Assembly: GCA_039638295.1 (NCBI GenBank)
Contig: JBDIWJ010000033.1
Span: 1 to 21,522, forward strand
Origin: Candidatus Phoenicimicrobium oleiphilum
GTDB lineage: Bacteria > Atribacterota > Phoenicimicrobiia > Phoenicimicrobiales > Phoenicimicrobiaceae
Direction: 5' to 3'
Length of the DNA stretch: 21,522 bases
Below are positions 91 to 19,272 of the stretch, piece after piece (the first letter of the stretch is position 1; every line of letters starts with the position of its first letter). The notes below the pieces were generated by a model. That model was not told the DNA's origin and ran no database searches. It saw only the letters and a program-made list of their open reading frames with translations. The translations under genes and the position numbers were made by a program.

Positions 91-140
91 TAACAACTAA
101 GAATTACCTGGTCAACTGGTAAACAGGGTAACTGGGTAAC
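91..140 (+). repeat. Octamer-arm element, copy D (3' arm only within the window)
   Basis: TAACAACTAAGAATTACCTGGTCAACTGGTAAACAGGGTAACTGGGTAAC matches the reverse complement of 17711-17759 at 46/50 positions. Confidence 0.9.
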
Positions 141-149
141 TTAAATTAA

Positions 150-201
150 CTTGCAACTTGTATTTAATACTTAAGAACGACTATTTATAAAAACTAATTA
201 A
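150..201 (+). repeat. Pre-RBS module, diverged copy
   Basis: CTTGCAACTTGTATTTAATACT..AACGACTATT..ACTAATTAA resembles the reverse complements of 17645-17700 and 16057-16101. Confidence 0.75.
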
Positions 202-290
202 GAGGTGATGCTGGGAACTAATTAAACAAATTTATTTTAAAGATTTTAAGTATAAAATAAAAATAATAACACAAAGGGAGGAAAAACAAA

Positions 291-677
291 ATGGCAAATA
301 AAGTTATTGAGAATTTATATTATACTAAAAGTGATGAATGGTTAAAAGTAGAAGATGAAATTGGAACAATAGGAATTACTGATTATGCCCAAGACCAACT
401 GGGAGATATTGTTTTTCTTGAAAAAATAGAAAAGGGTAAAAAATTAAAGCAAGGTGAAACACTTACTACCATTGAATCAGTTAAGGCTGTATCTGATGTA
501 TATGCACCAGTTAGTGGAGAGGTAACTGAAGTAAACGAAAAATTATTAGATGATACTTCTATTATAAATAAAGACCCTTACGGAGAGGGTTGGATTGCCA
601 AAATTAAAATAGCTAATAAAGACGAATTAAAAAATCTTATGGGTGCCAAAGAATATTCTGAATATAGAAAAGAATAA
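291..677 (+). CDS. gcvH: Glycine cleavage system H protein
   Basis: GITDYAQDQLGDIVF and the lipoyl-lysine motif IESVKAVSD; SD GGGAGG upstream. Confidence 0.97.
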   Translation: MANKVIENLYYTKSDEWLKVEDEIGTIGITDYAQDQLGDIVFLEKIEKGKKLKQGETLTTIESVKAVSDVYAPVSGEVTEVNEKLLDDTSIINKDPYGEGWIAKIKIANKDELKNLMGAKEYSEYRKE

Positions 678-702
678 TATAAAAGAATAGAGGTATAATA
701 AA

Positions 703-2046
703 ATGAGATACATCCCAAATACCGATGAACAAAAAAGGGAGATGTTAAAAGAGATTGGAGTTTCTTCCTTTGAAGAATTAATTAAAATTATTCCTCAAAA
801 CCTCAGGCTAAAAGAAAGATTAAATATCCCAGAAGCAATAACAGAAAGCGAATTGGAAGATAAAATTTATCATATTGCTCAAAAAAATTCCAACTTCTTT
901 TTAATGAAACCTTTGGTGGGTGCCGGTGCCTACCGACATTATATCCCAGAAGCAGAGAAATTTCTTTTACAAAGAGAAGAATTTTGGACTTGCTATACCC
1001 CTTATCAACCTGAACTGAGCCAGGGTACACTGCAATCAATATTTGAGTATCAAAGTTATATTTCTCGACTTACCAAGACGGAGGTGGTAATTCCTTCTAT
1101 CTACGATGGTGCCTCGGCAACAGGCGAAGCAGCTTTAATGTCCCTAAGATTAACCCATAAAAATAAAATAATTGTATCAAATTTACTACATCCACATTAC
1201 CGAGAAACACTCAAAACCTATGTAGCACCTCATAAGCCAGAAATTATTGAATTACCTTATAATAATGGCTTGGTTGATATAAAAAAATTACAGAATTTGA
1301 TTGGAGAAGATGTAGCGGCAGTTATTATTCAAAGCCCTAATTTCTTTGGAGGTATAGAAAGACTATCTGAAATTTCTGAAATAGTTCATTCTAAAGATGC
1401 ACTGTTAATTGATGTGATTGTGGAAAGTATGTCTTTGGGAATTTTAAAAGCTCCTGGTGAAATGAATGTGGACATTGTAGTGGGAAATGCTCAGTCTTTC
1501 GGAATGGATTTAAATTTCGGGGGCCCCTACAATGCTTATTTGGCAACCAAAAAACAGTTTATCAGGCAACTTCCTGGAAGAATCGTAGGAGAAACAGTTG
1601 ATGTGGACGGAAAACGAGTTTTCGTAATGACTATGCGTGCTCGAGAACAAGATATAAGGAGAGAAAGGGCAACTTCTAACATTTGTACTAACCATAATTT
1701 AAATGTAACAGCTTCTAATATTTACCTTTCTTTATTGGGTACCGAAGGTCTTTATCAAATTTCTCTTATAAATACTAAATCTGCCCATTATTTAGAAAAT
1801 CTACTGATAAAATCTGGGAAATTTGAAAAAGTGTTTGATTATCCCTTCTATAATGAATTTCTCCTGAAGAGTAAAGAAGATATAGATACTGTCAACAAAA
1901 AATTATTAGAGAATAATTATATTCCTCCCCTTAAAATTTGCCAATTTTATAAAGAGGAAAGTTTAAAGAATGTTTTACTCTTTGCGGTAACTGAGATATT
2001 AAGTAGGGATGATTTAAATAAAGTCGCGAATATTCTTTTGGAATAA
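703..2046 (+). CDS. gcvPA: Glycine dehydrogenase (decarboxylating) subunit 1
   Basis: MRYIPNT start, YTPYQPELSQGTLQ, REQDIRRERATSNICTN. Confidence 0.97.
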   Translation: MRYIPNTDEQKREMLKEIGVSSFEELIKIIPQNLRLKERLNIPEAITESELEDKIYHIAQKNSNFFLMKPLVGAGAYRHYIPEAEKFLLQREEFWTCYTPYQPELSQGTLQSIFEYQSYISRLTKTEVVIPSIYDGASATGEAALMSLRLTHKNKIIVSNLLHPHYRETLKTYVAPHKPEIIELPYNNGLVDIKKLQNLIGEDVAAVIIQSPNFFGGIERLSEISEIVHSKDALLIDVIVESMSLGILKAPGEMNVDIVVGNAQSFGMDLNFGGPYNAYLATKKQFIRQLPGRIVGETVDVDGKRVFVMTMRAREQDIRRERATSNICTNHNLNVTASNIYLSLLGTEGLYQISLINTKSAHYLENLLIKSGKFEKVFDYPFYNEFLLKSKEDIDTVNKKLLENNYIPPLKICQFYKEESLKNVLLFAVTEILSRDDLNKVANILLE

Positions 2047-2058
2047 GGAGTGATAAAT

Positions 2059-3564
2059 ATGAAATTAATATTCGAAAAAAGTGTAAAAGGAAGAGATGGT
2101 TATTCGCTGCCTCAAGATTTATTCGAGGATATTAAAATTGAAGAATGTTTACCTGTATATGGTATTAGTAGAGATAAAAAAATACTCAGTGAAGTCTCTG
2201 AAGTAGATGTTATTCGGCACTTTACTAAACTTTCTAAATTAAACTATGGTCTTGATGACGGGTTTTATCCTTTGGGATCGTGCACGATGAAATACAACCC
2301 CAAAATTAACGAAAAATTAGCTTCATTAAGTAATTTTGTTTATGCTCATCCCCTGGCACCTGAAGAGACAGTGCAGGGTTGTTTAGAAATTGCCTATGAC
2401 CTAAATAAATTACTCTGCGAAATAACTGGAATGGACGAATACACTATGGTTCCTGCTGCAGGAGCACATGGGGAATTAACTGGTGTGCTCATTATGAGAA
2501 AATATTTTATTGACCGCGGAGACATACGGCGTAAAATGCTAATTCCTGATTCTGCTCACGGCACCAACCCTGCTTCCGCAGCTATGGCTGGTTTTCAGGT
2601 AGTAGAAGTAAAATCAAACGAAAGGGGAACAATTGATTTAAAAGAATTAGCTGAATTAATGGATGAAGATACTGTTGGATTAATGCTAACCAACCCCAAT
2701 ACGGTAGGATTATACGATGAAGGGATAGAAGAAATTGAAAAGATCGTCCACGGTAAAGGTGGTTTGCTCTATTATGATGGAGCTAATCTTAATGCTTCCC
2801 TGGGTATTATCAGGCCTGGGGACGCCGGTTTTGATGTTGTTCATCTTAATCTACACAAAACTTTTTCTACCCCTCATGGAGGTGGTGGACCTGGCGCAGG
2901 AGTAATTGGAGTAAAGAAAAATCTCACCCCTTACCTCCCCACTCCAATCGTTGCTTTAGATTCAGTCAAGAAAAAATATTACTGGAAAGACGTAGGAGAA
3001 AAAAGTATTGGTATGGTGAGAGCATTCTGGGCTAATTTCCCAGTATTAGTTAAAACTTATGCCTGGATTCTAAGTATGGGACCAGATGGTCTTTATAATG
3101 CTTCGGAAACAAGCATAATAAATGCCAATTATGTGTTAACGAAATTAAAAGAATATTATAAACCGGTTTATGACCGTTATTGTGGACATGAATGTACACT
3201 TACTGGAAAAGAATATAAAAAATATGGAGTGAAGACTTTAGATATTGCTAAGAGATTAATGGATTATAGAATGCATCCACCCACTATTTATTTCCCTCAT
3301 TTTGAACCATATGCTGAAGAAACTATAATGGTAGAACCACCGGAATCAGAAAGTAAAGAAATGCTCGATAAATTTATAGATACTATGATAAAAATTTCTA
3401 ATGAGGTCAAGACCAACCCTGAATTATTAACTACTGCCCCCCATATTACTCCCATCAGAAGGGTTAATGATGCTTTAGCTGTAAAAAGAGCAATTTTAAC
3501 TTATGATGATGAATTAAAACTTAAGGGGGAATTAAAATATCAAGACAAAGATATAAATTTTTAA
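2059..3564 (+). CDS. gcvPB: Glycine dehydrogenase (decarboxylating) subunit 2
   Basis: YPLGSCTMKYNP, PLP-lysine motif HLNLHKTFSTPHGGGGPG. Start moved from 2050 to ATG 2059, which follows SD AAGGAGTGA and gives MKLIFEKS. Confidence 0.96.
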   Translation: MKLIFEKSVKGRDGYSLPQDLFEDIKIEECLPVYGISRDKKILSEVSEVDVIRHFTKLSKLNYGLDDGFYPLGSCTMKYNPKINEKLASLSNFVYAHPLAPEETVQGCLEIAYDLNKLLCEITGMDEYTMVPAAGAHGELTGVLIMRKYFIDRGDIRRKMLIPDSAHGTNPASAAMAGFQVVEVKSNERGTIDLKELAELMDEDTVGLMLTNPNTVGLYDEGIEEIEKIVHGKGGLLYYDGANLNASLGIIRPGDAGFDVVHLNLHKTFSTPHGGGGPGAGVIGVKKNLTPYLPTPIVALDSVKKKYYWKDVGEKSIGMVRAFWANFPVLVKTYAWILSMGPDGLYNASETSIINANYVLTKLKEYYKPVYDRYCGHECTLTGKEYKKYGVKTLDIAKRLMDYRMHPPTIYFPHFEPYAEETIMVEPPESESKEMLDKFIDTMIKISNEVKTNPELLTTAPHITPIRRVNDALAVKRAILTYDDELKLKGELKYQDKDINF

Positions 3565-3582
3565 TCGGGAGGAAATTTTGAA

Positions 3583-4701
3583 ATGGAAGAATTATTATTA
3601 ACTCCTCTACACGAGGAACATTTAAAATTAAAAGCCAGAATGATACCCTTTGATGGTTTTGATATGCCGGTACAATATACCAGTATCATTGAAGAACATT
3701 TTGCTGTTAGGGAACGTGTAGGCATCTTTGATGTGTCACATATGGGAGAGATTGAATTACGTGGCAAAGATGCCCTTCCCTTTACCGATTATCTGGTAAC
3801 CAATTCGATAATAAATATGAAGGATGGAGATATAAAATATTCCCCTTTATGTTACCCCCATGGTGGTCAGGTTGATGACCTCTTTGTTTATAAGGTAAAA
3901 GATGACTTTGTACTTTTGGTAGTAAACGCCTCACCCAATTATTCAATTAAAGATTATGACTGGATCGTAAAAAATAAAGGTGATTTTGATGTAGAAATAT
4001 TTAACAAAAGCAAGGATTATGGCGAAGTAGCAGTTCAAGGTCCTGATTCAGAAAAATTGTTAGAACCTCTGGTAACAGGGGATATTTCTCTTAAAGAATT
4101 GAAGCGTTTTAAGTTTATTTTTGGTCAACTGTTTGGGAAGAAAATTCTTATTTCAAGAACTGGTTATACCGGTGAAGATGGTTTCGAAATTTATACCTTT
4201 AAACCCGAAGATATAATAGATATCTGGCGGGGCATTTTAGAAGAAGGTAAAAAATATAACCTAAAGCCCTGTGGATTAGGAGCTAGAGATACCACCAGAT
4301 TTGAAGTTTGCTATTGGTTATATGGCAATGATATTGACGAAACTGTAAATCCATTAGAGAGCGGACAAGGTTGGACAGTAAAATTTGATAAAGGAAACTT
4401 TATAGGAAAAGATGCTTTACTTAAAATAAAAGAAAAAGGAATTAACCGAAAACTGGTTGGTCTTTTTGTTCCTCAAGGTGGTATTCCACGGCACGGAATG
4501 GAAGTAAAAAAGAATAATAAAAAGATTGGATATATCACTTCTGGAAATTATTGTCCATCCTTAAAAAAGGTATATGCTATGGCTATCTTAGATCTTCCCT
4601 ATACTGAAAAGGGTACTGAGGTAGATATAATTATAAGAAACAGAGAGATAGAAGCGGAAGTTGTGGATATGCCCTTTGTTGCACCATTTAATAAAAGATG
4701 A
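3583..4701 (+). CDS. gcvT: Aminomethyltransferase (glycine cleavage T protein)
   Basis: TPLH, FDVSHMGEI, SRTGYTGEDGFEI, GLGARDT. Confidence 0.97.
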   Translation: MEELLLTPLHEEHLKLKARMIPFDGFDMPVQYTSIIEEHFAVRERVGIFDVSHMGEIELRGKDALPFTDYLVTNSIINMKDGDIKYSPLCYPHGGQVDDLFVYKVKDDFVLLVVNASPNYSIKDYDWIVKNKGDFDVEIFNKSKDYGEVAVQGPDSEKLLEPLVTGDISLKELKRFKFIFGQLFGKKILISRTGYTGEDGFEIYTFKPEDIIDIWRGILEEGKKYNLKPCGLGARDTTRFEVCYWLYGNDIDETVNPLESGQGWTVKFDKGNFIGKDALLKIKEKGINRKLVGLFVPQGGIPRHGMEVKKNNKKIGYITSGNYCPSLKKVYAMAILDLPYTEKGTEVDIIIRNREIEAEVVDMPFVAPFNKR

Positions 4702-4704
4702 GTT

Positions 4705-4744
4705 AATTGGCCGATTTTCCAATTTTTCAATTCACCAATTAAAA
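4705..4744. repeat. Degenerate 8-nt tandem array (RATTnnYY)
   Basis: AATTGGCC GATTTTCC AATTTTTC AATTCACC AATTAAAA just after the gcvT stop. Confidence 0.6.
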
Positions 4745-4748
4745 AAGG

Positions 4749-4811
4749 AAGGAGGTGGTTAAAACAAACTAACAAATAAAATCATTATTAACTTTATCAG
4801 AAGGAGGTGAT
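4749..4811 (+). promoter_or_regulatory. Two orphan Shine-Dalgarno-like sites in the symporter leader
   Basis: AAGGAGGTGG (4749-4758) and AAGGAGGTGAT (4801-4811), with no ATG/GTG/TTG at normal spacing downstream. Confidence 0.5.
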
Positions 4812-4957
4812 ATTAGAACAATTTTATTAAAAAAATTTGTTTGATATTAGTATTTTAAATCATTTTTTCAATACAAAGAAGTACTTTTCAACCCCCATTT
4901 ATGTAAATCAAATTTGTCTTAAGATAATTAATAAAATTTGAGTAAGGAGGTTTTTTT

Positions 4958-6316
4958 ATGACTGCTATAATGAATTTTTTAACTATTCTTGATGATTTTG
5001 TCTGGGGACCCCCTATGATGGTGATACTGGTTGGTACAGGAATATTTTTAACCATCAGATTGGGTTTTCCTCAATTTTTACATTCCTCTTATGCCTGGAA
5101 ATTAATCTTCAAGGGTGCTTTTAAGAAAGATGTGGCTCAACGCGGAGAGGGAGAAATTACTCCCTTCCAGGCTTTAACTGCTACTTTAGCCGCTACTGTG
5201 GGAAATGGTAATATTGCCGGGGTAGCTACTGCCTTAGCGGCCGGTGGTCCAGGTGCAGCAGTTTGGATGTGGATTACTGCTCTTTTCGGAATGTGTACTA
5301 AAATGTGTGAAGCAACCTTAGGTGTAAAATATAGAATAAAAGATAAAGATGGAGCCTATGCCGGTGGCTCAATGTACTTTATCGAAAAGGGTTTGGGACA
5401 AAAATGGTTGGGTTGGTTATTCGCCTTCTTTGGGGCAATTTGCGCCTTTGGAATTGGAGATGCAGTCCAAACTAACTCAATGGCAGCAGTTGGCCATAGT
5501 GTATTTAATATACCCGTTGCATTAACAGGAATAGTAATAACTTTTTTAGTCTGGATAGTAGTAGTTGGAGGAATTAAGCGTATAGGTGAAGTAACTGAAA
5601 AGTTAGTTCCTTTTATGGCTATATTCTATATTGCCGGGGCATTAATTATAATTATAGCTAAAATCAACTTACTCCCCTGGGCAATTGGAGAAATATTTAG
5701 ATCAGCCTTTACCGGAAGAGCGGCATTTGGTGGATTTGCCGGGGCTACTGTAGCTCAAGCTATGAGATTCGGAGTTGCCAGAGGTATATTCTCTAATGAA
5801 GCTGGCTTGGGAAGTGCCAGTATAGCTCACAGTGTTGCCCAAACCAAACATCCAGTACGTCAGGGTACTATTGCTATGATAGGAGTTATGATTGATACTT
5901 TGATTATTTGTTCGATGACCGCCATTGTTATTGTTATTACCCAATCTTTAGGTACCGGACTTACCAGCACACCACTTACAGCTCACGCTTTTACCTCTGT
6001 TTTAGGTGGATTAGGAGGACCTATTGTTGCCCTCGGTTCCTTACTGTTCGGATACTCTACCATTATTACCTGGTGTTACTATGGCCAGCAATGTGCCCGT
6101 TATATCTTTGGTCCAATAGTAATTAGACCTTATGCCTGGCTTTTTGTCATTGTAGCTTTTTTAGGTTCGATAGTAGAAATTCCTTTTGTCTGGTTACTTA
6201 CCGATGCCCTTAATGGAGCAATGGCTATTCCTAATTTAATCGGTCTAATCTTCTTAAGTGGTATAATGGCTAAAGAAGTAAGGGAATACTTCTCTACTCC
6301 AGAACTCTTAGGCTAA
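4958..6316 (+). CDS. Alanine/glycine:cation symporter (AGCS family)
   Basis: ATVGNGNIAGVA, GGPGAAVWMW, RGIFSNEAGLGSA, NGAMAIPNLIGL; multiple hydrophobic segments; SD TAAGGAGG. Confidence 0.95.
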   Translation: MTAIMNFLTILDDFVWGPPMMVILVGTGIFLTIRLGFPQFLHSSYAWKLIFKGAFKKDVAQRGEGEITPFQALTATLAATVGNGNIAGVATALAAGGPGAAVWMWITALFGMCTKMCEATLGVKYRIKDKDGAYAGGSMYFIEKGLGQKWLGWLFAFFGAICAFGIGDAVQTNSMAAVGHSVFNIPVALTGIVITFLVWIVVVGGIKRIGEVTEKLVPFMAIFYIAGALIIIIAKINLLPWAIGEIFRSAFTGRAAFGGFAGATVAQAMRFGVARGIFSNEAGLGSASIAHSVAQTKHPVRQGTIAMIGVMIDTLIICSMTAIVIVITQSLGTGLTSTPLTAHAFTSVLGGLGGPIVALGSLLFGYSTIITWCYYGQQCARYIFGPIVIRPYAWLFVIVAFLGSIVEIPFVWLLTDALNGAMAIPNLIGLIFLSGIMAKEVREYFSTPELLG

Positions 6317-6321
6317 AACTT

Positions 6322-6351
6322 AGAGGGGGGATTAACCCCCCTCTTCTTTTT
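6322..6351 (+). terminator. Intrinsic terminator-like hairpin after the symporter
   Basis: AGAGGGGGG-ATTAA-CCCCCCTCT, a 9-bp stem followed by TCTTTTT. Confidence 0.75.
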
Positions 6352-6384
6352 CTATTAACTAATAAGGAGGAAATTAAAAAAATA

Positions 6385-7500
6385 ATGTTAATTGGTATCC
6401 CTAAAGAAATTAAAAATAATGAAAATAGGGCAGCAATTACTCCAGCCGGGGTAAAAGCTTTCTATCAAGCAGGACATCAAGTACTGGTCCAAAAATCAGC
6501 TGGCATAGGAAGTGGGATTGAAGATATAGAATACAGTCAAGCTGGAGCCTCTATAATCGAAACTGCTAAAGAATTATTTGATAGAGCAGATATGATTATG
6601 AAGGTAAAAGAGCCTCTACCTTCTGAATATGACCTCTTAAGGGCTGGTCAGATACTATTTACTTACTTTCATTTTGCCTCTTCTTTAGAATTAACTAAAG
6701 CTATGATAGATAGAAAAGTTATTTGCATTGCTTATGAAACTGTTCAAACTGAAGACGGTTATTTACCACTGTTAGCACCAATGAGTGAAGTGGCAGGAAA
6801 AATGGCTGCTCATATTGCAGCTTATTATCTTGCCCTACCCTATGGTGGAAGAGGAGTATTGATGGGCGGTGTATCCGGAGTCAGCCCAGCCAAAATTGTA
6901 GTAATCGGGGGAGGAACCGTGGGGACTTGTGCTGCAAAAGTAGCAGCTGGCATAGGTGCAAATGTCACTTTACTTGATATAAATATTAGAAGGTTAAGAT
7001 ATTTAGATGATGTCTTACCAAAAAATATTAAGCTGATAGTTTCTAATCAACACAATATTGAGGAAGAAACTAAAGATGCTGATGCGGTAATTGGAGCAGT
7101 ATTAGTCCCTGGGGCAGAAGCTCCAAAATTAATGACAGAAGAAATGGTAAAGAAGATGAAACCAAATTCTGTCATAGTAGATGTAGCCATCGATCAAGGA
7201 GGATGCATAGCTACAAGTAGACCTACTTCTCATAGTGAACCAGTCTATAAGGTTCACAATGTATTACATTATTGTGTTACCAATATGCCTGGTGCCTTTG
7301 CCAGAACTTCTACCTTTGCCTTAACTAATGCTACCCTTCCCTATGGTTTAGAAATTGCCAATAAAGGCTATATAAAAGCAATAAAGGAAAATAAAGCCCT
7401 CGCTAAAGGATTAAATATCATTGATGGTAAAATTACCTACGAACCCGTAGCAAAGGTTTTTAATTTAAAATACTATCCGATAGAAGAGATAATTAATTAA
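6385..7500 (+). CDS. ald: Alanine dehydrogenase
   Basis: IGIPKEIKNNENR, KVKEP, FTYFH, LLAPMSEVAG, Rossmann GGGTVG, DVAIDQGGC, NMPGA. Confidence 0.97.
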   Translation: MLIGIPKEIKNNENRAAITPAGVKAFYQAGHQVLVQKSAGIGSGIEDIEYSQAGASIIETAKELFDRADMIMKVKEPLPSEYDLLRAGQILFTYFHFASSLELTKAMIDRKVICIAYETVQTEDGYLPLLAPMSEVAGKMAAHIAAYYLALPYGGRGVLMGGVSGVSPAKIVVIGGGTVGTCAAKVAAGIGANVTLLDINIRRLRYLDDVLPKNIKLIVSNQHNIEEETKDADAVIGAVLVPGAEAPKLMTEEMVKKMKPNSVIVDVAIDQGGCIATSRPTSHSEPVYKVHNVLHYCVTNMPGAFARTSTFALTNATLPYGLEIANKGYIKAIKENKALAKGLNIIDGKITYEPVAKVFNLKYYPIEEIIN

Positions 7501-7522
7501 TCCCCTAATTTACTAATTTATT
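7491..7522. repeat. Degenerate 8-nt tandem array (RATTnnYY)
   Basis: AATTAATT AATCCCCT AATTTACT AATTTATT overlapping and following the ald stop. Confidence 0.45.
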
Positions 7523-7533
7523 TTAAATTGGTG

Positions 7534-7581
7534 AAACTTAAAAAGCCTCTATACTGTTAAGTGTAGAGGCTTTTTAAGTTT
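7534..7581. terminator. Bidirectional intrinsic terminator between convergent ald and groEL
   Basis: AAACTTAAAAAGCCTCTATAC-TGTTAA-GTGTAGAGGCTTTTTAAGTTT: 21-bp inverted repeat with one mismatch and A/T tracts on both sides. Confidence 0.9.
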
Positions 7582-7596
7582 ATATTTCTATTTAAC

Positions 7597-9279
<1,683 letters not shown>

Positions 9280-9310
9280 TTACTTTTTTAATTTAAGATA
9301 TTTTATAATC

Positions 9311-9616: not shown

Positions 9617-9659
9617 TTTTTTAGAACCTCCCTTAATATATTAACATTTTTTAAATTAA

Positions 9660-9686
9660 TTAGCACTCTCTTATTAAGAGTGCTAA
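9660..9686. promoter_or_regulatory. CIRCE element (HrcA operator)
   Basis: TTAGCACTC-TCTTATTAA-GAGTGCTAA is an exact match to TTAGCACTC-N9-GAGTGCTAA, upstream of groES. Confidence 0.97.
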
Positions 9687-9725: not shown

Positions 9726-9803
9726 ATCTTATTATTCTTGATATTTAGCTATTTACTGCTAAATATACCAATTAATAGCTATTTTAATTCATTTTTCTTC
9801 TAT

Positions 9804-10826: not shown

Positions 10827-10848
10827 ATAATTTTCCTTTTCTCCATAA

Positions 10849-10920
10849 AATTTATCAATTAACTGATTGATCGATAAACAAATTCACCAATCCACCGATT
10901 AACTGATTCTCCAATTAATT
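10849..10920. repeat. Nine-unit degenerate 8-nt tandem array (RATTnnYY)
   Basis: AATTTATC AATTAACT GATTGATC GATAAACA AATTCACC AATCCACC GATTAACT GATTCTCC AATTAATT. Confidence 0.8.
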
Positions 10921-10922
10921 TA

Positions 10923-11088
10923 GTTGCCCAGTTACCTGGTTTACCAGTTGGCTTAGTTAGTCATAGTCATTAATTTTATATACAACTTCTCAATTGTAAT
11001 ATGAGAATTGGCTGATATAGTTAATCAGTTTAATTTTAATTCTTCAACCAGATAACTGGTAAACTAGCCAACCGGCTAACCACCTTCA
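10923..11088 (-). repeat. Octamer-arm element, copy A (full length)
   Basis: Inverted arms GTTGCCCA GTTACCTG GTTTACCA GTTGGC ... AACCAGAT AACTGGTA AACTAGCC AACCGGCT AAC. Homologous to 17711-17880: 27/30 in the first arm and 77/102 ungapped over the distal part. Confidence 0.9.
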
Positions 11089-11149
11089 CGAGATATTAGA
11101 TATAATATATATTTGCTATATACTGACTATATACTGAATACTGATTCTT

Positions 11150-11620
11150 CTAATTCAATTTCTTTTCCATAACCAAGGCATCTTCTTTTTCAGCTTGATA
11201 ATAATTCTTTCTAATCTTTATTAACTTATATCCACATTTTCTGTACATATTCTGAGCAATAAGATTTGACCTTCTTACTTCTAAAGATATTTTTTCTACC
11301 TTATGTTTAGTTGCCATTTTTTCGATAAACCTTAAAAGGATTCCACCATATCCCCTATTACGCCATCTCTCTTTGATGGCAATATTGGTAATATGAAAGC
11401 TTCTACCTCTGAGCCAAAGTCCGAGATAACCGATAATCTCTTTATTTTTTTCTAATACAAAATATTTAGCATATCTATTTTGGATTAACTCATAATAGAA
11501 AATATTATAAGTCCAGGGATTGGAAAATGATTTTTTTTCTATATTCAGTACTTCTTCTAAATCATCCAACTCCATTGATCTAATAATAATTTTTGATATA
11601 TCGTAATTAACATTAATCAT
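11150..11620 (-). CDS. rimI: Ribosomal-protein-alanine N-acetyltransferase (GNAT)
   Basis: IEKKSFSNPW, HITNIAI, RNRGYG, LEVRRSN, RKNYY..EDALVM; lies between tsaB and tsaD. Confidence 0.93.
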   Translation of the reverse strand: MINVNYDISKIIIRSMELDDLEEVLNIEKKSFSNPWTYNIFYYELIQNRYAKYFVLEKNKEIIGYLGLWLRGRSFHITNIAIKERWRNRGYGGILLRFIEKMATKHKVEKISLEVRRSNLIAQNMYRKCGYKLIKIRKNYYQAEKEDALVMEKKLN

Positions 11621-11626
11621 TATTTG

Positions 11627-12328
11627 TTACTTGTATTTTTTCTCCCAAATAATCTCCGCCTGAGATTTTCTAAGATATAAGGGTGAAAGAGTATAAATAT
11701 TATCTTCCTCCCCTTTTTTAAGTTTTTCTAAACCCAAAAAAGCAACATTCACACCTCGAGGCGGGGCCAAATGCGATCCTACAAATAAGGCGTTTCTGCC
11801 TAATTTTTCTTCTATAGTCTTTCGATATTTTATTATACCTTCACCAATAAAAATTATCTTTTCTTTTAAAAAAGATAATTTTGCCAGAAGACTATTAATA
11901 CCTTCGCAATTATAATCTACAACCTTATCTAAACCATCTACTTCCCGAAATACAGCACTGTATATTTCACCCCTTTTAGATTCTAAAATAGGACAAACTA
12001 AAAAAGGCATCCCCATCAAAGAAAATGCTAAAGCATCTAACGTGGGAATTGCCAATAATGGTAAGGAGGTGGCATAAGATAAACCCTTTGCCACTCCTAA
12101 GCCTATCCTAAGCCCGGTAAAAGAACCAGGGCCTATAGATACCGCAATACCGTCAAGGTCAGATAATTTTAAACCCACCCCTTCTAATACATCTTTTATA
12201 GCGAACACTAAGATAGAAGAGGTTTTTTGGTAATAACTACTAAGATTATATTCGGCAAGAATATCCATTTCTTCAACTAAACCTAAACTACAAATCTTGG
12301 TAGAAGTATCAATCCCTAAAATTTTCAA
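11627..12328 (-). CDS. tsaB: tRNA threonylcarbamoyladenosine biosynthesis protein TsaB
   Basis: ILGIDTST, GPGSFTGLRIG, PLYLRKSQAE; TTG start overlapping the tsaE end. Confidence 0.95.
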   Translation of the reverse strand: MKILGIDTSTKICSLGLVEEMDILAEYNLSSYYQKTSSILVFAIKDVLEGVGLKLSDLDGIAVSIGPGSFTGLRIGLGVAKGLSYATSLPLLAIPTLDALAFSLMGMPFLVCPILESKRGEIYSAVFREVDGLDKVVDYNCEGINSLLAKLSFLKEKIIFIGEGIIKYRKTIEEKLGRNALFVGSHLAPPRGVNVAFLGLEKLKKGEEDNIYTLSPLYLRKSQAEIIWEKKYK

Positions 12329-12785
12329 TTTTAATTAACTCCTTTAAAAATATTTCAAATCTGTCACCTTGAGGGAAAAAGGAAATTGTTCTTTTATCAT
12401 AATTGCTGAATTTAATATTAATTTTCAAATGATTGTTAGGCAAAAAATCTTCAATCTTTTCTGCCCATTCAATAGCTGTTAAGCCCTCTCCGTAAAAATA
12501 TTCTTCATACCCTAAATCCAAAAACTCCTCAGAACTATTGAGACGAAAAAGGTCAAAATGATAAACTGGAATTTTGCCTGTATACTCATTTATAATGGTA
12601 AAAGAAGGACTGGTTACATAATCTTGCACCTCAAGCCCCTGAGATATCCCTTGAATAAGACAAGTCTTTCCTGCTCCTAATTCGCCATAGAAAGCAATTA
12701 AGTCTCCTGGTATAATTAATTTGCTTATTCTTTTTCCCAATTTTTTTGTCTCTTCCGGACTTTCGGTAATAATATTTAAATTCAT
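12309..12785 (-). CDS. tsaE: tRNA threonylcarbamoyladenosine biosynthesis ATPase TsaE
   Basis: Walker A GELGAGKT, VTSPSFTI, HFDLFRL, IEWAE. Confidence 0.96.
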   Translation of the reverse strand: MNLNIITESPEETKKLGKRISKLIIPGDLIAFYGELGAGKTCLIQGISQGLEVQDYVTSPSFTIINEYTGKIPVYHFDLFRLNSSEEFLDLGYEEYFYGEGLTAIEWAEKIEDFLPNNHLKINIKFSNYDKRTISFFPQGDRFEIFLKELIKIENFRD

Positions 12786-12863
12786 TTTAAAAATAATTTA
12801 CACCTTTCTAACTATAGCGTATAGTTTAAGTATTCTATTTATGTAAGTTACTAATAGTTTCAG

Positions 12864-13118
12864 ATTAAATTAAAAACTTAAAGCAAAAAGATTAATTGTT
12901 ACTTAAGAATTCAGGAGCCAGTAGTCAGGAGTCAGAAGAATACAAGATTATATAACCTTATATTCTAAAATAATTCTGAATACTGGATTCTGTCTTCTGG
13001 CTTCTATGTTATCTGCGAGATACAATTCACGATACACAAATTAGTCTTCTAGCTTTTTTTGTCTCAATTTTAAGTTTTGAGTTATGGTTTTACGTTTTGC
13101 GCCTTTAATTTTTTGCTT
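12864..13118. repeat. Nested heptamer inverted-arm repeat cluster (alr-tsaE spacer)
   Basis: Outer AAAA/TTTT-type arms at 12864-12890 and 13066-13118. Inner nAGYCAG arms at 12908-12937 and 12974-13005. Central hairpin 12937-12966. GATAC-type block 13015-13039. Confidence 0.85.
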
Positions 13119-13130
13119 TCTTGTTATCCG

Positions 13131-14306
13131 CTAAAGAAATCTTTCCTCTAACATAGTTTTAACCTTCCAGGGTTTTCCATTTTTAATAAATAATTTAGGA
13201 ACTCGTTTTTTGTCGGGCATATGAACTATTTCATAATTAATTGTCCCAATTTTCTGGGCAATTTCTTCCACTGAAATTACTTCATCCCCCTGCTTTCCCC
13301 ATAACACCACTTCATCTCCTGCTTCTACTTGAGGAAGTTTAGTAACATCTATCATACATTGATCCATACATATTCGACCAATTATTGGCACACGGTTCCC
13401 TCTTACAAGTACTTCTCCTTGATTAGATAGGAGCCGATTATAACCATCAGCATAACCTACGGGGAGAGAGGCAACCAATGTTCTTCTTTTAGTAATGTAA
13501 GTTCGCCCATAACCAATGCTTTCTCCAGCTGGTAGTTCTTTTAAAAAGATTATCCTGGTTTTAAATTCTTGAGCTGGTATCAAGTCTATAGTTTTTTTTA
13601 CTTCAGGGGAGGGATATAGCCCGTATATAGAGATTCCTGGCCTTAGCATATCTAACCACATATGAGGTAAATCAAGGAGAGTAGCACTATTACCTACATG
13701 CTTTATGGAAATATTTATTCCTTCTCTTTTTATATCAATTAAAACTTTATTAAATTTTTTAAATTGATTTTCGGTATAAGCCTTATCCTTTTCATCTGCA
13801 ACAGAAAAATGAGTAAAAATACCTTCTATTTCCACATTTTTCAACGATTTTACCTTTTTAATAAAACCCAAAACTTCTTGAGGGAAAATTCCTATCCTTC
13901 CCATACCAGTATCTACTTTGAGATGTATTTTGGCAATTTTATTCATTTTGATTGCCGACTTAGAAAGTTTTTCTAACATTTCGTATTCACTAACTGCAGG
14001 GGTAATATCATATAATACTAATAATTCTGCCTGTTCCTTCAAGGTCAGCCCAAGAACTAAAATTGGGACAGTAATCCCAGCCTCGCGAAGTAAGATACCT
14101 TCTTCTAAACGAGCAACTGCTAATCTATTAGCTCCATTATCTAAAACTACTGAAGAAACTTCTAAAACATCGTGGCCATACGCATTCCCTTTCACCACTG
14201 CCATTAGTTCTTTTTTCTCGCCGATTAATTTTTTAATATTTCTTACATTTTTTGCAATTGCATCAAGATTTATTTCTACCCACGTAGGGCCTAACAGCTC
14301 TTTCAT
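13131..14306 (-). CDS. alr: Alanine racemase
   Basis: PLP-lysine motif AVVKGNAYGH, KVDTGMGRIG, GYADG, GRICMDQ, GTINYE. Confidence 0.97.
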   Translation of the reverse strand: MKELLGPTWVEINLDAIAKNVRNIKKLIGEKKELMAVVKGNAYGHDVLEVSSVVLDNGANRLAVARLEEGILLREAGITVPILVLGLTLKEQAELLVLYDITPAVSEYEMLEKLSKSAIKMNKIAKIHLKVDTGMGRIGIFPQEVLGFIKKVKSLKNVEIEGIFTHFSVADEKDKAYTENQFKKFNKVLIDIKREGINISIKHVGNSATLLDLPHMWLDMLRPGISIYGLYPSPEVKKTIDLIPAQEFKTRIIFLKELPAGESIGYGRTYITKRRTLVASLPVGYADGYNRLLSNQGEVLVRGNRVPIIGRICMDQCMIDVTKLPQVEAGDEVVLWGKQGDEVISVEEIAQKIGTINYEIVHMPDKKRVPKLFIKNGKPWKVKTMLEERFL

Positions 14307-14417
14307 TTTTGAGTTTCCTTCTTTTTTTTCGTATCGTGCACCGCTTTCAGACTTATAATAGAGTTATCCATCTAAAATATCACTACAATTTTTATGATTT
14401 TGCCCTTTGTATACTTT

Positions 14418-14440
14418 GGGCACGATGCATCGTTCCCTAC
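14418..14440 (-). repeat. GTAG-type REP-like palindrome
   Basis: Minus strand GTAGGGAACGATGCATCGTGCCC: a GTAG tetranucleotide leading into a GC-rich 20-nt palindrome with one mismatched pair. Confidence 0.65.
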
Positions 14441-14463
14441 CTTTAAATCCTGATTTTCTTCAC

Positions 14464-14491
14464 ACGATACTCAATACGCAATACTCGATAC
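14464..14491. repeat. Heptamer tandem array (nnRATAC)
   Basis: ACGATAC TCAATAC GCAATAC TCGATAC; short inverted partner GTATCGTG at 14331-14338. Confidence 0.8.
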
Positions 14492-14496
14492 GGTTT

Positions 14497-16041
14497 TTAT
14501 TCTAAACTTAAAAAGGCTTGAGGGACTTGAGAAAGGATATCACCGGCTATCATTCCTCTTTCACCTTTAATATTACGGGCTAAGTCACCGGCCAGGCTAT
14601 GAATATATACTCCGGCAATAGCTGCTGAAAAATTATCAGCACCTTGAGCTATTAAGCTACAAATTATTCCAGTTAAAACATCTCCCGAGCCTCCTGTAGC
14701 CATTCCTGAATTATCACCAATATTAATATATACCTCGCCTTTATCTCCTGCAATAATCGTTCTAGCCCCCTTTAATACCACCACTACTCCAAAGTCCTGG
14801 GCAACTTCTCTGGTAATTTCCAATTGGTTATCCAAAACATATTTTACATCTTTGTTTATTAAATATGCCATTTCTCCAGGATGGGGAGTAATAACTACTG
14901 GCGATTTGGTCTTTTTTAATAATGCAGGATCTTCTTTTAATGCATATATTGCGTCTGCATCAATAACTATAGGAATAGTAGTTTTTTCAATAATCTTTCT
15001 TGCTAACCTCTGGGTTTCTAATTGTCTGGAAATCCCCGGGCCTATCCCTATAACTGAAAAATCATCCAGAAACTTAAAAATCTCAATTTCTGCTTCATCA
15101 CTTAAAGATTGATTTTTAGTTTCGGCTAGAGGAAAAGTTATTACTTCAGTCAATTTTACTTCCATTATAGAGTTTAAAGTCTTTGGTATCCCTAAAAAGA
15201 CTAAACCCGCACCGCTTCTAATTGCAGCTTCACTGGTTAAATACGCTGCACCAGTCATTCCTCTTGAACCAGCAAGTATTAAAACTTTACCAAAGGACCC
15301 CTTATGTCCATAAGATAAACGAGTAGGTAAAAGCGATTTAACAATTTCTTTATTTATCATATTAAACTTTAATTTTTTACACTCTAAAAGATTTTTAGGA
15401 ATACCGATATCTTCAACAATTATCTTTCCAGTATAATCCGCTCCTGGATAGAGTAATAAACCTATCTTTGGCAAACCTAAAGTGATAGTATAAGTAGCTT
15501 TGACACAGGAGCCTACAATTTTTCCTGTATCGGAATTTAAACCAGAAGGAACATCAACTGCAATTACATCTTTATTAGCGTAATTAATTAAATCTATAAT
15601 CTTTGCCTTTAATCCGGTCACCTTACCTTGTAATCCAGTTCCTAATATTGCATCTATAATCAAATCAGTATCCAGTATAATCCTTCGCACTTCTTCAATT
15701 TTCATAGATTCAATTTCTATTAACTCAATCCCTATTTTACTAATTATTTCTAAGTTTATTTTCGCTTCACCTTTAATTTTATCTAACGAAGATAAAACAA
15801 AAACTCTTACTTTCACTCCATAATTATATAGATGACGTGCAACTACAAATCCGTCTCCTCCATTATTGCCTGACCCTGAAAAAATAATTACTTTTCTTGA
15901 TTTTAAATCTGAATAAATATTTTTTATATTTTGAAATATACTTAAACCAGCATTCTCCATTAAAATTAAACCAGGTATTCCATACTCATCTATAGCTTTT
16001 CTATCTATCTCTTTAATCTCTTGACTGGTTACTACTTTCAT
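14497..16041 (-). CDS. nnr: Bifunctional NAD(P)H-hydrate epimerase/dehydratase (YjeF, NnrE-NnrD fusion)
   Basis: LMENAG, GSGNNGGDG, DVPSG, HKGSFG, ITPHPGEM, VLKGA, MATGGSGDVLTG. Confidence 0.96.
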   Translation of the reverse strand: MKVVTSQEIKEIDRKAIDEYGIPGLILMENAGLSIFQNIKNIYSDLKSRKVIIFSGSGNNGGDGFVVARHLYNYGVKVRVFVLSSLDKIKGEAKINLEIISKIGIELIEIESMKIEEVRRIILDTDLIIDAILGTGLQGKVTGLKAKIIDLINYANKDVIAVDVPSGLNSDTGKIVGSCVKATYTITLGLPKIGLLLYPGADYTGKIIVEDIGIPKNLLECKKLKFNMINKEIVKSLLPTRLSYGHKGSFGKVLILAGSRGMTGAAYLTSEAAIRSGAGLVFLGIPKTLNSIMEVKLTEVITFPLAETKNQSLSDEAEIEIFKFLDDFSVIGIGPGISRQLETQRLARKIIEKTTIPIVIDADAIYALKEDPALLKKTKSPVVITPHPGEMAYLINKDVKYVLDNQLEITREVAQDFGVVVVLKGARTIIAGDKGEVYINIGDNSGMATGGSGDVLTGIICSLIAQGADNFSAAIAGVYIHSLAGDLARNIKGERGMIAGDILSQVPQAFLSLE

Positions 16042-16056
16042 AACTACCTCCTTGAC

Positions 16057-16101
16057 TTAGTCATTAGGGAATAGTCGTCAGTTTTAAATATAAGTTGCAA
16101 G
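16057..16101 (-). repeat. Pre-RBS module, copy upstream of nnr
   Basis: TTAGTCATTAGG GAATAGTCGTCAGTTTTAAATATAAGTTGCAAG; 12/12 plus 31/33 identical to 17649-17700, with one 7-nt gap. Confidence 0.9.
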
Positions 16102-16123
16102 GTGCGAGAGGCAAATTTATTTA

Positions 16124-16214
16124 GTTACTCGGTTACCTAGTTTACCAGTTAAAATCAAAATTCCTAACCAGGAAACCATATAACGGTAACCAGCAAACCA
16201 GCTAACCGGCTAAC
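16124..16214 (-). repeat. Octamer-arm element, copy C (interior shortened)
   Basis: GTTACTCG GTTACCTA GTTTACCA GTT ... AACCAGCA AACCAGCT AACCGGCT AAC. Confidence 0.85.
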
Positions 16215-16225
16215 TATACTGATTT

Positions 16226-16612
16226 TTACTTATCCAGTTGGCTTTCCAGAATTACTTGGGCAATAGCATAATCATTGGTGTGAGAAATAGTTATAAAATA
16301 CTTATGCATTCCCATTTTTAAAGCAATTTTTTTTAATTTCCCGCTTATCTTTATAATAGGTTGGCCAAGTCCATCATTTTTTACTTCAATCTCCTTCCAA
16401 TTAACCCCCCTAAGCCCTAAGCCTAAAGCTTTCAAAAGGGCTTCTTTGGCAGCAAACTTCCCCGCATAAGACTGATATTTATTATTTCTTTTTTCACAAT
16501 AATTTTTTTCCCAAGAAGTAAATATTCTGGAAGTAAAACTATCTTCCCATCTTTTAATTATTTTTTCTATTCTATTTACTTCAACCAAATCTATTCCGCA
16601 TCCTATAATCAA
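16226..16612 (-). CDS. acpS: Holo-[acyl-carrier-protein] synthase
   Basis: IIGCGIDLVE, AGKFAAKEALLKALG, ITISH. The TTG at 16612 fits SD spacing and the usual MIIG.GID N-terminus; the ORF track starts at 16621. Confidence 0.95.
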   Translation of the reverse strand: MIIGCGIDLVEVNRIEKIIKRWEDSFTSRIFTSWEKNYCEKRNNKYQSYAGKFAAKEALLKALGLGLRGVNWKEIEVKNDGLGQPIIKISGKLKKIALKMGMHKYFITISHTNDYAIAQVILESQLDK

Positions 16613-16695
16613 TGAAATCATTCCTTTTTAAATACCATTCCCCCTTTTTATGGGGACATACTTTTATCTTTTTTAGTTATTAGTAAACAGCTATT

Positions 16696-17091
16696 TTAAA
16701 ATTCTCTATAATAAAAATTCCCCTCTTTTATCTTGCCTTTTAACCATTTCAATAAATATTTTTTAACCACCATTCTGCTAAAAGGTATTAAAAAAATAAA
16801 CCCTATAATATCAGTAATAAAACCAGGGGTAAGAAGTAATATTCCTCCAGCCAGAATAATAACTCCCTGAATTAAACTATCTCCTGGCAAGATTCCTTCA
16901 TTTAAATCATTTTGGATTTTCTTTAAAATCATAAAGCCCTGACCTTTTACCAAATAAGCTCCTAATATCCCAGTTAAGATAATTATGCCAATTATGGGTA
17001 GACTTCCTATCCTCTTTCCCACTTCAATCAAGATATATAGCTCTACTACTGGAACTATTATGAATGTCATTAGTAGTTTAGTAAAAAACAT
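16696..17091 (-). CDS. fxsA: FxsA family membrane protein
   Basis: FIIVPVVELYILIEVG, GGILLLTPGFITDIIGF; ATG 17091 follows GAGGAG. Confidence 0.92.
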   Translation of the reverse strand: MFFTKLLMTFIIVPVVELYILIEVGKRIGSLPIIGIIILTGILGAYLVKGQGFMILKKIQNDLNEGILPGDSLIQGVIILAGGILLLTPGFITDIIGFIFLIPFSRMVVKKYLLKWLKGKIKEGNFYYREF

Positions 17092-17187
17092 TTTTCTCCT
17101 CAAATCTTTATTTTCCTCTCGTTACCAATTCCCCCATTTTCACTTAGCCTGACTTCGCGAAAGCAAGGGACAAGCTTATAATTATAA

Positions 17188-17625
17188 CTAATCACATAAA
17201 TATCCTTCTACTTCCTTTTGCATTTCTGGAGAAAGAACAATAAATCTTCCCCTTGCCTCTGTTAATAAGGTCCCATCTTCTAAATGGGCTTGAGCTTGGG
17301 CTTCAATCATTCTACCCAAATCTTTTATCAACTGAGCAGTAAAGATAATCTTTTTGCCTATCGGAGCTTTTTTTCGGTATTTTATATTAATTTCTACAGT
17401 TAAAGTCATTACTCCTTTATTTACTATTGCAGTTCTTCCCATTATTTCATCTAAAATAGAAAATAATATTCCGCCATGAACAATTCCCTTGAAACCTTGG
17501 TGTTTTGGTTCAGGAATAAATTCTGCTTTTACTTCTTTTCCATCTTTAAAAAAAGTAATTTTTAAACCAAAAGGATTTTCTTTCCCACATACAAAGCATT
17601 CTTTATATCCTGGTAAAGCTTCCAA
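17188..17625 (-). CDS. PaaI-family (hotdog fold) thioesterase
   Basis: CFVCGKENPFGL, HQGFKGIVHGGILFSILDE; TTG start after SD GGGAGG. Confidence 0.88.
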   Translation of the reverse strand: MEALPGYKECFVCGKENPFGLKITFFKDGKEVKAEFIPEPKHQGFKGIVHGGILFSILDEIMGRTAIVNKGVMTLTVEINIKYRKKAPIGKKIIFTAQLIKDLGRMIEAQAQAHLEDGTLLTEARGRFIVLSPEMQKEVEGYLCD

Positions 17626-17644
17626 AAATTAAAACCTCCCTGCT

Positions 17645-17700
17645 TTAATTAGTCATTAGGTGATAGTGAATAGTCGTTAGTTTTAAATATAAGTTGTAAG
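17645..17700 (-). repeat. Pre-RBS module, copy upstream of the thioesterase
   Basis: Heptamers TTAGTCA TTAGGTG ATAGTGA ATAGTCG TTAGTTT followed by TAAATATAAGTTGTAAG. Confidence 0.9.
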
Positions 17701-17710
17701 TTTATAGTTG

Positions 17711-17880
17711 GTTACCCAGTTACCCGGTTTACCAGTTGACCAATTAATTCTAGTTGTTAATTTCAAATCAAATATAAGTTCTCAGTTGTAAGATAATGGT
17801 GATTTGATACATTTAACCAACTTGATTTTAATTCTTCAACCGGATAATCGGTGAACTGGCTAACTGGCTAACCTGCTTCA
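17711..17880 (-). repeat. Octamer-arm element, copy B (full length)
   Basis: GTTACCCA GTTACCCG GTTTACCA GTTGACCA ... AACCGGAT AATCGGTG AACTGGCT AACTGGCT AAC; homologous to 10923-11088 and 91-140. Confidence 0.9.
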
Positions 17881-17881
17881 T

Positions 17882-17909
17882 TATATACTATATACTCGAT
17901 ACTATACAC
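17882..17909. repeat. Heptamer tandem array (nnnATAC)
   Basis: TATATAC TATATAC TCGATAC TATACAC abutting the ltaE stop codon. Confidence 0.8.
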
Positions 17910-18970
17910 TAATTTTTCACTATTTCTTTTATTACCTTTATAGTAGTAAAAATATCTTCTTCACTAATTCCATAATGAGTAACTAAACGAACTTTGGTAG
18001 GTGGTCGGGGTGAACCTAAGATATTATATTTAGCTAATTCTTGTAAAAATTGATAAGTGTCCATACCTGCTTCTTGAACATCTAAGTATACCATATTTGT
18101 CTGGACTGTTTTTAAGTCTAACTTTATTCCTTTTATTTCATTTAAGCCTTCGCCTAAAATACGGGCATTTTTATGGTCTTCTTTTAATCTTTCAACCATC
18201 TTTTCTAAGGCAATTATCCCTGCTGCTGCTAAAATACCTGCCTGTCTCATTCCCCCACCTAACATCTTCCGATTTTTACGAGCTTTTTCAATAAATTCTT
18301 CTGACCCGGCCAAGATTGACCCCACCGGTGCACTTAACCCTTTAGAAAGACAAAACATTACTGAATCAACATCTTTTGTAAGGGTAGCTGGATCAAGATT
18401 TAATGCTACAGCAGCATTAAATATTCGGGCTCCGTCTAAATGAATCAGAATATTTCGCTGATGACCTAATTGGCAAATTTCTTCGATTATCTCAGGAGGA
18501 ATAATTGTTCCTCCGGCCCTATTATGAGTATTCTCTAAGCAAATTAGCCTGGTCTCGGGATAGTGAATATTTTTATCTCTTAATGCTTTTTTAATATCCC
18601 GTGGATCTGGAATACCTTTATCACCCGAAATCAACCGAGGAATCACCCCTGCGATAGCTGATATACCTCCTACCTCATAATAATACATATGGCAGTCCGA
18701 TTCTAAAATTACTTCGTCTCCTTTTTGGCAATGGGTTAAAACTGCAAGCAAATTACCCATAGTTCCACTAGCTACAAACAATGCTGCCTCTTTTCCCATC
18801 TTTTTTGCGGCTAATTCTTCTAATCTATTCACTGTGGGATCTTCTTGGTAAACATCATCTCCAACTTCCGCGTTTTTCATTGCTTCTCTCATCTCATTTG
18901 TTGGTAAGGTAACTGTATCACTTCTTAAATCAATTTTTTTGAGGTCACTATTTTTATTAAAAGTACTCAT
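17909..18970 (-). CDS. ltaE: Low-specificity L-threonine aldolase
   Basis: IDLRSDTVT, VGDDVY.EDPTV, SGTMGN, ENTHN, HLDGARIFNA, PLP-lysine CLSKGL. Start moved to ATG 18970 after SD GGAGGT. Confidence 0.96.
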   Translation of the reverse strand: MSTFNKNSDLKKIDLRSDTVTLPTNEMREAMKNAEVGDDVYQEDPTVNRLEELAAKKMGKEAALFVASGTMGNLLAVLTHCQKGDEVILESDCHMYYYEVGGISAIAGVIPRLISGDKGIPDPRDIKKALRDKNIHYPETRLICLENTHNRAGGTIIPPEIIEEICQLGHQRNILIHLDGARIFNAAVALNLDPATLTKDVDSVMFCLSKGLSAPVGSILAGSEEFIEKARKNRKMLGGGMRQAGILAAAGIIALEKMVERLKEDHKNARILGEGLNEIKGIKLDLKTVQTNMVYLDVQEAGMDTYQFLQELAKYNILGSPRPPTKVRLVTHYGISEEDIFTTIKVIKEIVKN

Positions 18971-18996
18971 ATTATTTACCTCCAAATTATATAAAG

Positions 18997-19272
18997 TATT
19001 CAGGAACCAGAAGCCAGTAGTCAGAATTAATTCGTTATTCGTATCTTGTATCTTGTATCTTGTATCTCTTTCAAGAAATTATTTTGTTCATATTATCATT
19101 CATTATTAAATTAAAAATTTAAAGCGAAAAGTGTAAAATCATAATTCAAAACTTAAAACTTTTTGAATTAATTTTGAATTTTAAGTTTTAGTTTTACGCT
19201 TTGCACTTTGCGTTTTTCGCTACTTCACTACTTGCTATAATTCGAGATACGATTCACGAGATACGAGATACA
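18997..19272. repeat. Nested heptamer inverted-arm repeat cluster (glnA-ltaE spacer)
   Basis: nAGYCAG array 18997-19024. TYGTATC x4 at 19039-19066 with inverted GAGATAC arm 19244-19272. Inner AAAA/TTTT-type arms at 19105-19160 and 19170-19221. Confidence 0.9.

Follow-up and report, generated by a model that had tools for sequence, protein, structure and literature searches.

The 21,522-nt stretch of DNA analysed here (the window; G000:C33:1-21522, contig JBDIWJ010000033.1 of Candidatus Phoenicimicrobium oleiphilum) belongs to a draft genome of 1.65 Mb with 33% GC and 91% completeness. The genes of the window, gcvH through glmS, are housekeeping genes, named by translation and in four cases also by profile. 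The spacers between them hold tandem arrays of 7-nt or 8-nt units, referred to as arms, some of which form inverted pairs around a short core. Very probably, these modules descend from cassettes in which a gene of the four-helix-bundle family TIGR02436 is enclosed by arms whose unit is specific to the protein clade; the window's own copies are empty, with no gene between the arms. Genomes, contigs and loci are cited by the prefixes G, C and L. The letters A–O are our own labels for arm units: A, TTAGTCA-type; B/C and D, GATAC-type heptamers, class C being the unit around L001; F, the RATTnnYY octamer; G, the GTTnnCCR octamer; H, nAGYCAG; and J, TTTTnnG-type.

Arm arrays in the spacers

The six large spacers and the modules named in the original prediction are present where it had placed them. 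At the left edge (91-186, plus strand) lies the right half of an empty element of class G, with heptamer units behind it. It is 83% identical to 17669-17759 and has a period-8 array at 114-141 according to Tandem Repeats Finder (TRF); the left half was removed by the end of an insertion sequence (IS)-like element at 1-99. A lone class F opening arm, also on the plus strand, stands directly past the gcvT stop codon (4703-4742; TRF period 8; 86% to the arms of L030). The remaining modules lie on the minus strand. Ahead of the tsaD start is a class F closing octamer array (10850-10919; 72-82% to the arms of L030 and L037), followed by a complete class G empty element (10920-11095; fold z −3.65) whose inverted octamer arms (10923-10949 and 11054-11080) flank a shared core of ~100 nt, and by a lone heptamer-type opening arm past the rimI stop (11116-11143), of class C as at L001. 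The module at 12864-13113 (fold z −3.56) nests one empty in another: class J arms at 12864-12895 and 13068-13113 enclose a class H inverted pair (12906-13010) and a GATAC-type unit. The J arm at 13068-13113 is 77-83% identical to L092, L093 and L096, and the H arm in the same spacer is 82% identical to L002.

In the nnr-alr spacer, a repetitive extragenic palindrome (REP)-like sequence at 14398-14428, with many copies genome-wide, carries the GTAG tag by which REPs are defined (PMC3733652). Past the nnr stop stands a GATAC-type heptamer opening arm of classes B/C (14460-14492; TRF period 7; 80-88% to L057, L060 and L025). In the module at 16055-16216 (fold z −5.69), class G octamers form an inverted pair (16114-16151 and 16179-16214); class A closing units come next, ahead of the nnr start, and the A arm is 84% identical to L052. 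A mosaic spacer at 17650-17911 (fold z −4.52) combines a class C opening arm (17882-17911), a complete class G element (17706-17875) and a class A closing arm (17650-17682). At 18994-19272 (fold z −3.15), a class D pair (19238-19272 and 19035-19075; 92-97% to L070 and L075) encloses a class J pair (19105-19221; 78-88% to L092, L093 and L096), with a lone class H closing arm at 18994-19030. The folding scores of the five paired elements, z = −3.2 to −5.7, are as expected of any inverted repeat.

Copies of the modules within the window are 70-93% alike (for example, 93% between 100-140 and 17711-17751, and 73% between 10920-11102 and 17708-17894), and blastn against the genome returned 44-137 matches per large spacer, the self match included. 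Among 828 spacers (209,864 nt), 320 period-7 arrays were found, the counts for shuffles and coding DNA being 17-24 and 16, and 91 period-8 arrays, for which they were 2-7 and 4; periods 9-13 were nearly zero. With vocabularies taken from cassette flanks, an arm was present in 246 of 693 co-directional spacers, compared with 49-69 after shuffling. Both arms of one class were detected in the same spacer 53 times, compared with a permutation expectation of 34.5 ± 5, and single arms 433 times (246 opening only and 187 closing only), pairs being undercounted because exact 10-mer matching misses worn arms, some of those in the window included. The claim that modules usually form inverted pairs needs correcting, in that many arms are unpaired. 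Nesting was rarely scorable in spacers genome-wide (4 nested, 1 crossed).

Opening arms precede closing arms in 292 cases compared with 12, an order that is strand-symmetric and so gives no evidence of polarity with respect to transcription. In 103 of 154 spacers, no more than 15 nt separate the upstream stop from the start of the first opening arm (median 8 nt), in agreement with the predicted stop-adjacent placement. Class F closing arms end right before start codons and hold purine-rich, ribosome-binding-like words, as seen in the alr-tsaE spacers of L004, L007-L010, L012 and L016 and at window positions 10850-10919. Class F detections number 27 closing and 5 opening, which suggests that these closing arms serve as ribosome binding sites.

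The window contains no regular array of clustered regularly interspaced short palindromic repeats (CRISPRs) and no covariance-model match, the best hit of an Rfam scan having E 0.58; arm ends share no terminal motif beyond the repeat units themselves. The original view that the modules are not CRISPR agrees with this. Two items in the window do need setting apart from the modules: the GTAG-tagged REP in the alr/nnr spacer, which belongs to a family already described, and the IS-like end at 1-99, which cuts the gcvH module. Upstream of groS, a separate inverted repeat (9661-9685) is kept in relatives; we take it to be the CIRCE heat-shock operator.

Four-helix-bundle genes and their arm units

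Three TIGR02436 matches were found in the genome. Two of them, L001 and L002, score 132 and 122 bits, with a cut-off of 24, and the third, L003, is a remnant, an internally deleted four-helix gene between TTAGTCA-type arms. L001 is bracketed by the unit found at window positions 17882-17911, and L002 by nAGYCAG arms, which in the window enclose only the short core at 12906-13010. Across the family, 100 matches occur in 27 of 30 genomes. With 89 further loci taken, 102 profile matches were considered and 70 full-length genes kept; the 32 dropped were fragments, frameshift halves, one weak match beside a reverse transcriptase, and L067. In L104 (G025:C145), a weak TIGR02436 match adjoins a reverse transcriptase, and the two are likely the Avd–reverse transcriptase pair of a diversity-generating retroelement (DGR).

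All large window spacers match the arms of filled cassettes at 72-97%, whereas the gene bodies of the 70 cassettes gave no blastn or tblastx match there, the matches covering arms and at most the last codons. The arms of filled cassettes have a median of 5.3 units (10th-90th percentile 3-8 by a lenient run measure). The original suggestion that the modules are empty or decayed TIGR02436 cassettes is supported: arm types of the window bracket L001, L002, L003 and the genes of relatives, and in the sister species G001 the L002 site holds a deletion remnant, a short mid-gene fragment fused to the gene end and the right arm. The only solved relative found is XCC0516 (structure 2GSC; E 1e-22), described as a homopentamer (PMC4990558).

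Arm labels were assigned from the flanks before the protein tree was built, and three of the 70 genes, lacking an arm or flank, were left out, giving 67 rows. On the tree of 70 proteins, the 15 labels of these rows need 14 changes, which is the minimum, clade and unit corresponding one to one; each of 300 label shuffles needed at least 46. Protein clades are 17-84% identical to one another, and at least 15 protein–repeat pairs coexist in this one bacterial family. Among named genomes, the L002 protein has its 80 best relatives (59-72% identity) in Cyanobacteria, Nitrospirota, Verrucomicrobiota, Bacteroidota, Acidobacteriota, Planctomycetota, Bacillota and others. Among the 79 with usable flanks, the L002 unit was best-scoring in 74, period-7 arrays stood on both sides in 68, and inverted arms were present in 70, compared with 1 of 75 control windows. 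The right arm of these relatives is overlapped by the last codons, and the left arm is non-coding. Because a degenerate non-coding unit stays in step with its protein clade over many phyla, the correspondence points to recognition of the unit by the protein. Samples of three TIGR02436-negative genomes from outside the family contained 0, 0 and 1 arrays in ~25 kb of spacers; the gene-bearing G031 and G039 contained 16 and 4, the G031 sample including two contigs chosen for the gene.

Changing junctions, decay and block exchange

The junctions occupied by one protein clade number as many as four, and at three junctions the clade differs between genomes, two clades being found at each. Several of the junctions that hold a gene in relatives carry only arms in G000. 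An upstream neighbour was identified for 43 of the 70 genes and shares the gene's strand every time. The four-helix genes are under purifying selection, with dN/dS of 0.11-0.20 in 11 clades (one of them a single pair). Orthologues of the window spacers in 19 relatives range from 19 to 707 nt and show the same vocabulary reshuffled, including presence/absence variation. The exchange of blocks is seen at the glnA-ltaE spacers of L117 and L118 (257 and 412 nt), which have only their ends in common, although the coding flanks differ at 7 of 600 bases upstream and 3 of 660 downstream; both, like L144 and L145 discussed below, come from metagenome contigs, which could be chimeric. Different gene junctions also have nine blocks in common that are at least 120 nt long and at least 85% identical; the orientation is the same for seven of these and opposite for two. 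For the class G element at 17706-17875, about ten full-length copies were recovered (71-79%); the element lies 7:3 with respect to host transcription.

These comparisons show that a gene keeps its arm unit as it appears at one operon junction or another, in the orientation of the upstream gene, and that it decays in place; empty units and composite blocks turn up again in spacers that are unrelated. A non-autonomous mobile or recombinogenic system, as originally proposed, is supported by the presence/absence variation and block exchange among orthologous spacers.

Cassettes might seed arms, and the empties then spread as passive satellites, through nothing more than slippage, ectopic gene conversion and recombination between strains, the protein having no part in it. 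In the alignment of 14 class G copies, the element ends run into the heptamer arms next to them without a visible target duplication, as such passive spread would have it, although the copies are old and their ends merged with other arms. L144 and L145 likewise have ~90 nt of spacer in common and then switch inside an arm, and the heptamers known as short tandemly repeated repetitive (STRR) sequences have long been known without a gene (PMC2670836). Moreover, arms persist in G011 and G012 (each ~90% complete), where a TIGR02436 gene was not found, an observation that also weighs against a role for the protein. Passive spread nevertheless leaves unexplained why the unit tracks the protein clade across phyla at 59-72% protein identity, and why genes that change place are under purifying selection; nor does it fit the dominance of periods 7 and 8 with others absent. 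We consider it rather unlikely.

Other elements sit in or among the arms: GTAG REP palindromes, GIY-YIG genes, a group II intron-like insert and the IS-like end. Window positions 1-99 belong to the terminal part of an IS-like element present in several copies. This end has an open reading frame tail and two short direct repeats; it is 99-100% identical at five contig ends (the window and the ends of C49, C38, C54 and C29) and also occurs at L345. Class A heptamer arms adjoin it in G004 and in three or more of the five copies, and in the window it cuts the class G element, which suggests that it targets these repeats. Within window positions 11-90, bases 28-90 match four further contig ends (C38, C43, C36 and C23) at ~76%, possibly the other end or a sister of this element. 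The IS-like end had no match in viral contigs or plasmids, and in this 91%-complete genome neither IS110 (PF02371), for which the element itself was also searched, nor GxxExxY (TIGR04256) gave a match. Two stand-alone GIY-YIG genes of ~105 codons, L195 (G000:C3:13728-14612) and L194 (C2:85253-85577), each have their own palindromic flanks, which we take to resemble CGTC-type REPs. REPs of the CGTC type lack a dedicated transposase (PMC3733652). The copy on C3 is enclosed by class J arms; at that place the relative L092 has a four-helix gene. In L120, the glnA-ltaE spacer (1831 nt) contains, within an octamer opening arm, a group II intron-like insert, which was recognized visually by its start and its long reading frame. 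A gene like the Y1-type REP-associated tyrosine transposases (RAYTs), L193 (G000:C23:17607-18491), falls below the NF047646 cut-off and is flanked by its own repeated GC-rich motif.

The blocks could in principle hitch-hike, being moved by the enzyme of such a lodger: a RAYT-type Y1 protein, a stand-alone GIY-YIG nuclease or an IS transposase. The genome does encode one Y1/RAYT-like and two small GIY-YIG proteins, one GIY-YIG gene sits inside class J arms, and several shared blocks contain REP palindromes. However, the Y1 gene scores 61 bits with a RAYT cut-off of 80 and its flanking repeats are not heptamer arms, and the ten-copy class G element has no GC-rich palindrome. Movement by a lodger's enzyme is accordingly quite improbable.

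Proposed copying mechanism and known systems

The arms might alternatively act in RNA, as in an intervening sequence (IVS): they would pair in mRNA, RNase III would cut the stem and the protein would bind RNA, with spread by a borrowed reverse transcriptase or plain recombination. The protein family is that of the 23S rRNA IVSs, which RNase III excises (PMC4990558), and Avd, a structural relative, binds RNA (10.1101/2023.10.23.563531). The co-orientation of all 43 genes, the stable predicted hairpins and the RNase III encoded in the genome are also consistent with action in RNA. Mismatches between arms, read on the sense strand, show no G-U bias: the ratio of G-U to A-C is 111:96 in the own genome (63 hairpins; not significant) and 88:80 in filled cassettes (57 of 70), and transversions exceed transitions, 287 to 207. 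Long mRNA hairpins used as processing sites, which had been offered as an alternative to mobility, thus gain no support from the G-U test. In the spacers of relatives, G-U mismatches are weakly in excess (173:131, p 0.02, with rows that are not independent), which favours RNA; a 17:3 excess in four divergent spacers was set aside, strand having no meaning there. Most detected arms are unpaired, and pairing alone does not require a clade-specific unit. Reverse transcriptase (PF00078) had no match in this 91%-complete genome and was found in 10 of 30 family genomes and in none of the other 20, all drafts. Long RNA contigs cross several spacers unchanged, although the runs (X1-X3) consist of contigs only and may hold DNA. 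An RNA joint skipping 12790-13125 was not counted; its depth is low, unknown letters lie between, and it may come from another strain or locus. Overall, action in RNA appears unlikely.

Left arms paired only marginally better with their own right arm (45.7) than with that of another cassette of the same class (43.4; 31:21), the value for another class being 22.0. We read the arms as arrays of binding sites more than as pairing stems. Binding and copying at the DNA level are favoured because no G-U bias, strict polarity, target duplication or reverse transcriptase was found. Protein-guided copying of DNA is therefore the best mechanism available, although we infer it and would give it no better than an even chance. 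The protein, likely a pentamer like XCC0516, would bind about five units per arm, probably on DNA, and hold the cassette end against a like array elsewhere. Host recombination or repair would then copy the enclosed block without target duplication, and repeated rounds, together with deletions and lodging REP or IS elements, could produce the nested mosaics. The spacer modules would then be, as is likely, gene-less remnants and copies of cassettes, and the protein is predicted to help in copying them by binding its own units; for the two together the chances are about even.

Several points weigh against protein-guided copying and cassette descent, in addition to those noted for G011, G012 and the relatives' G-U excess. 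Binding and movement are both inferred, and the literature yielded no report of catalytic activity for the four-helix fold. Within the family, the congruence of clade and unit partly reflects shared descent. Seven small families of empties lean towards one orientation (20:5, P 0.10). None of the compared loci supplied a clean pair of a pristine and a filled site. Finally, no coding remnant was found in the cores of the window empties, so that their descent rests on the arms.

Beyond this lineage, we tentatively raise a broader possibility, which we regard as somewhat doubtful: a widespread mobile class with a single, non-catalytic pentameric protein, which would recognize a 7/8-nt code at each end, with about one unit for each subunit, and direct host recombination to copy the interior. 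Many bacterial heptamer repeats, the cyanobacterial ones too, would be empty copies, and rRNA IVSs a special case. The idea joins two old puzzles, the orphan 23S IVS-protein/four-helix family, related to Avd, and bacterial heptamer repeats of unexplained origin. If true, it would supply natural protein–repeat pairs and explain the rewriting of about one-third of the lineage's operon junctions while the flanking genes barely change. A link between such a gene and heptamer arms was not found in the literature searched, which mostly left out subscription journals and supplements; the available text of PMC4990558, PMC3733652, PMC3936711, PMC2670836, PMC3116915, PMC4679880 and 10.1101/2023.10.23.563531 makes no such link.

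Cyanobacterial STRR heptamers and the TAACTGA repeats of Beggiatoaceae (PMC2670836, PMC4679880) resemble the arms in being intergenic 7-nt tandem units near start codons that can form hairpins, and cyanobacterial relatives of L002 carry class H arms. In the available text, the function of both is given as unknown and neither is linked to a gene, four-helix terms being absent from that of PMC4679880. The arms described here also include 8-mers, and their units each go with a particular protein clade. The class G element, a discrete gene-less unit with terminal inverted repeats in about ten copies, is similar to a miniature inverted-repeat transposable element. The Avd protein of DGRs (10.1101/2023.10.23.563531) is, like S23 proteins, a pentameric, positively charged barrel that binds nucleic acid during copying. 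The Avd profile matched weakly (E 1e-5 to 1e-9; 25-36 bits with a cut-off of 80), and the cassettes lack Avd with an adjacent reverse transcriptase; template repeats were not searched for.

The 23S rRNA IVS (S23p/23S_rRNA_IVP; PMC4990558) shares with the cassettes its protein family (their genes match TIGR02436 over the cut-off and 2GSC), enclosure by inverted repeats, a place inside a host transcript and sporadic occurrence. It sits in an rRNA gene, whereas the window copies lie between protein genes and 43 filled copies directly follow one, with tandem 7/8-nt arms, a clade-specific unit, imperfect pairing and gene-less arms in many spacers. The REPtron, or REPIN-RAYT system (REPIN, a hairpin-capable REP doublet; PMC3116915, PMC3733652), likewise pairs one gene with flanking copies of its own repeat and has many non-autonomous extragenic inverted doublets able to form hairpins, and several gene–repeat pairs per genome. 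Here, however, the gene is TIGR02436 and not an HUH/Y1 nuclease, the one Y1 gene having other flanks, and the arms are tandem 7/8-mers and not GTAG or CGTC palindromes, only 14398-14428 being REP-like. By analogy, the cassettes would work like a REPtron/REPIN pair without the nuclease, yet they lack defining features of an rRNA IVS, a REPIN and a DGR.

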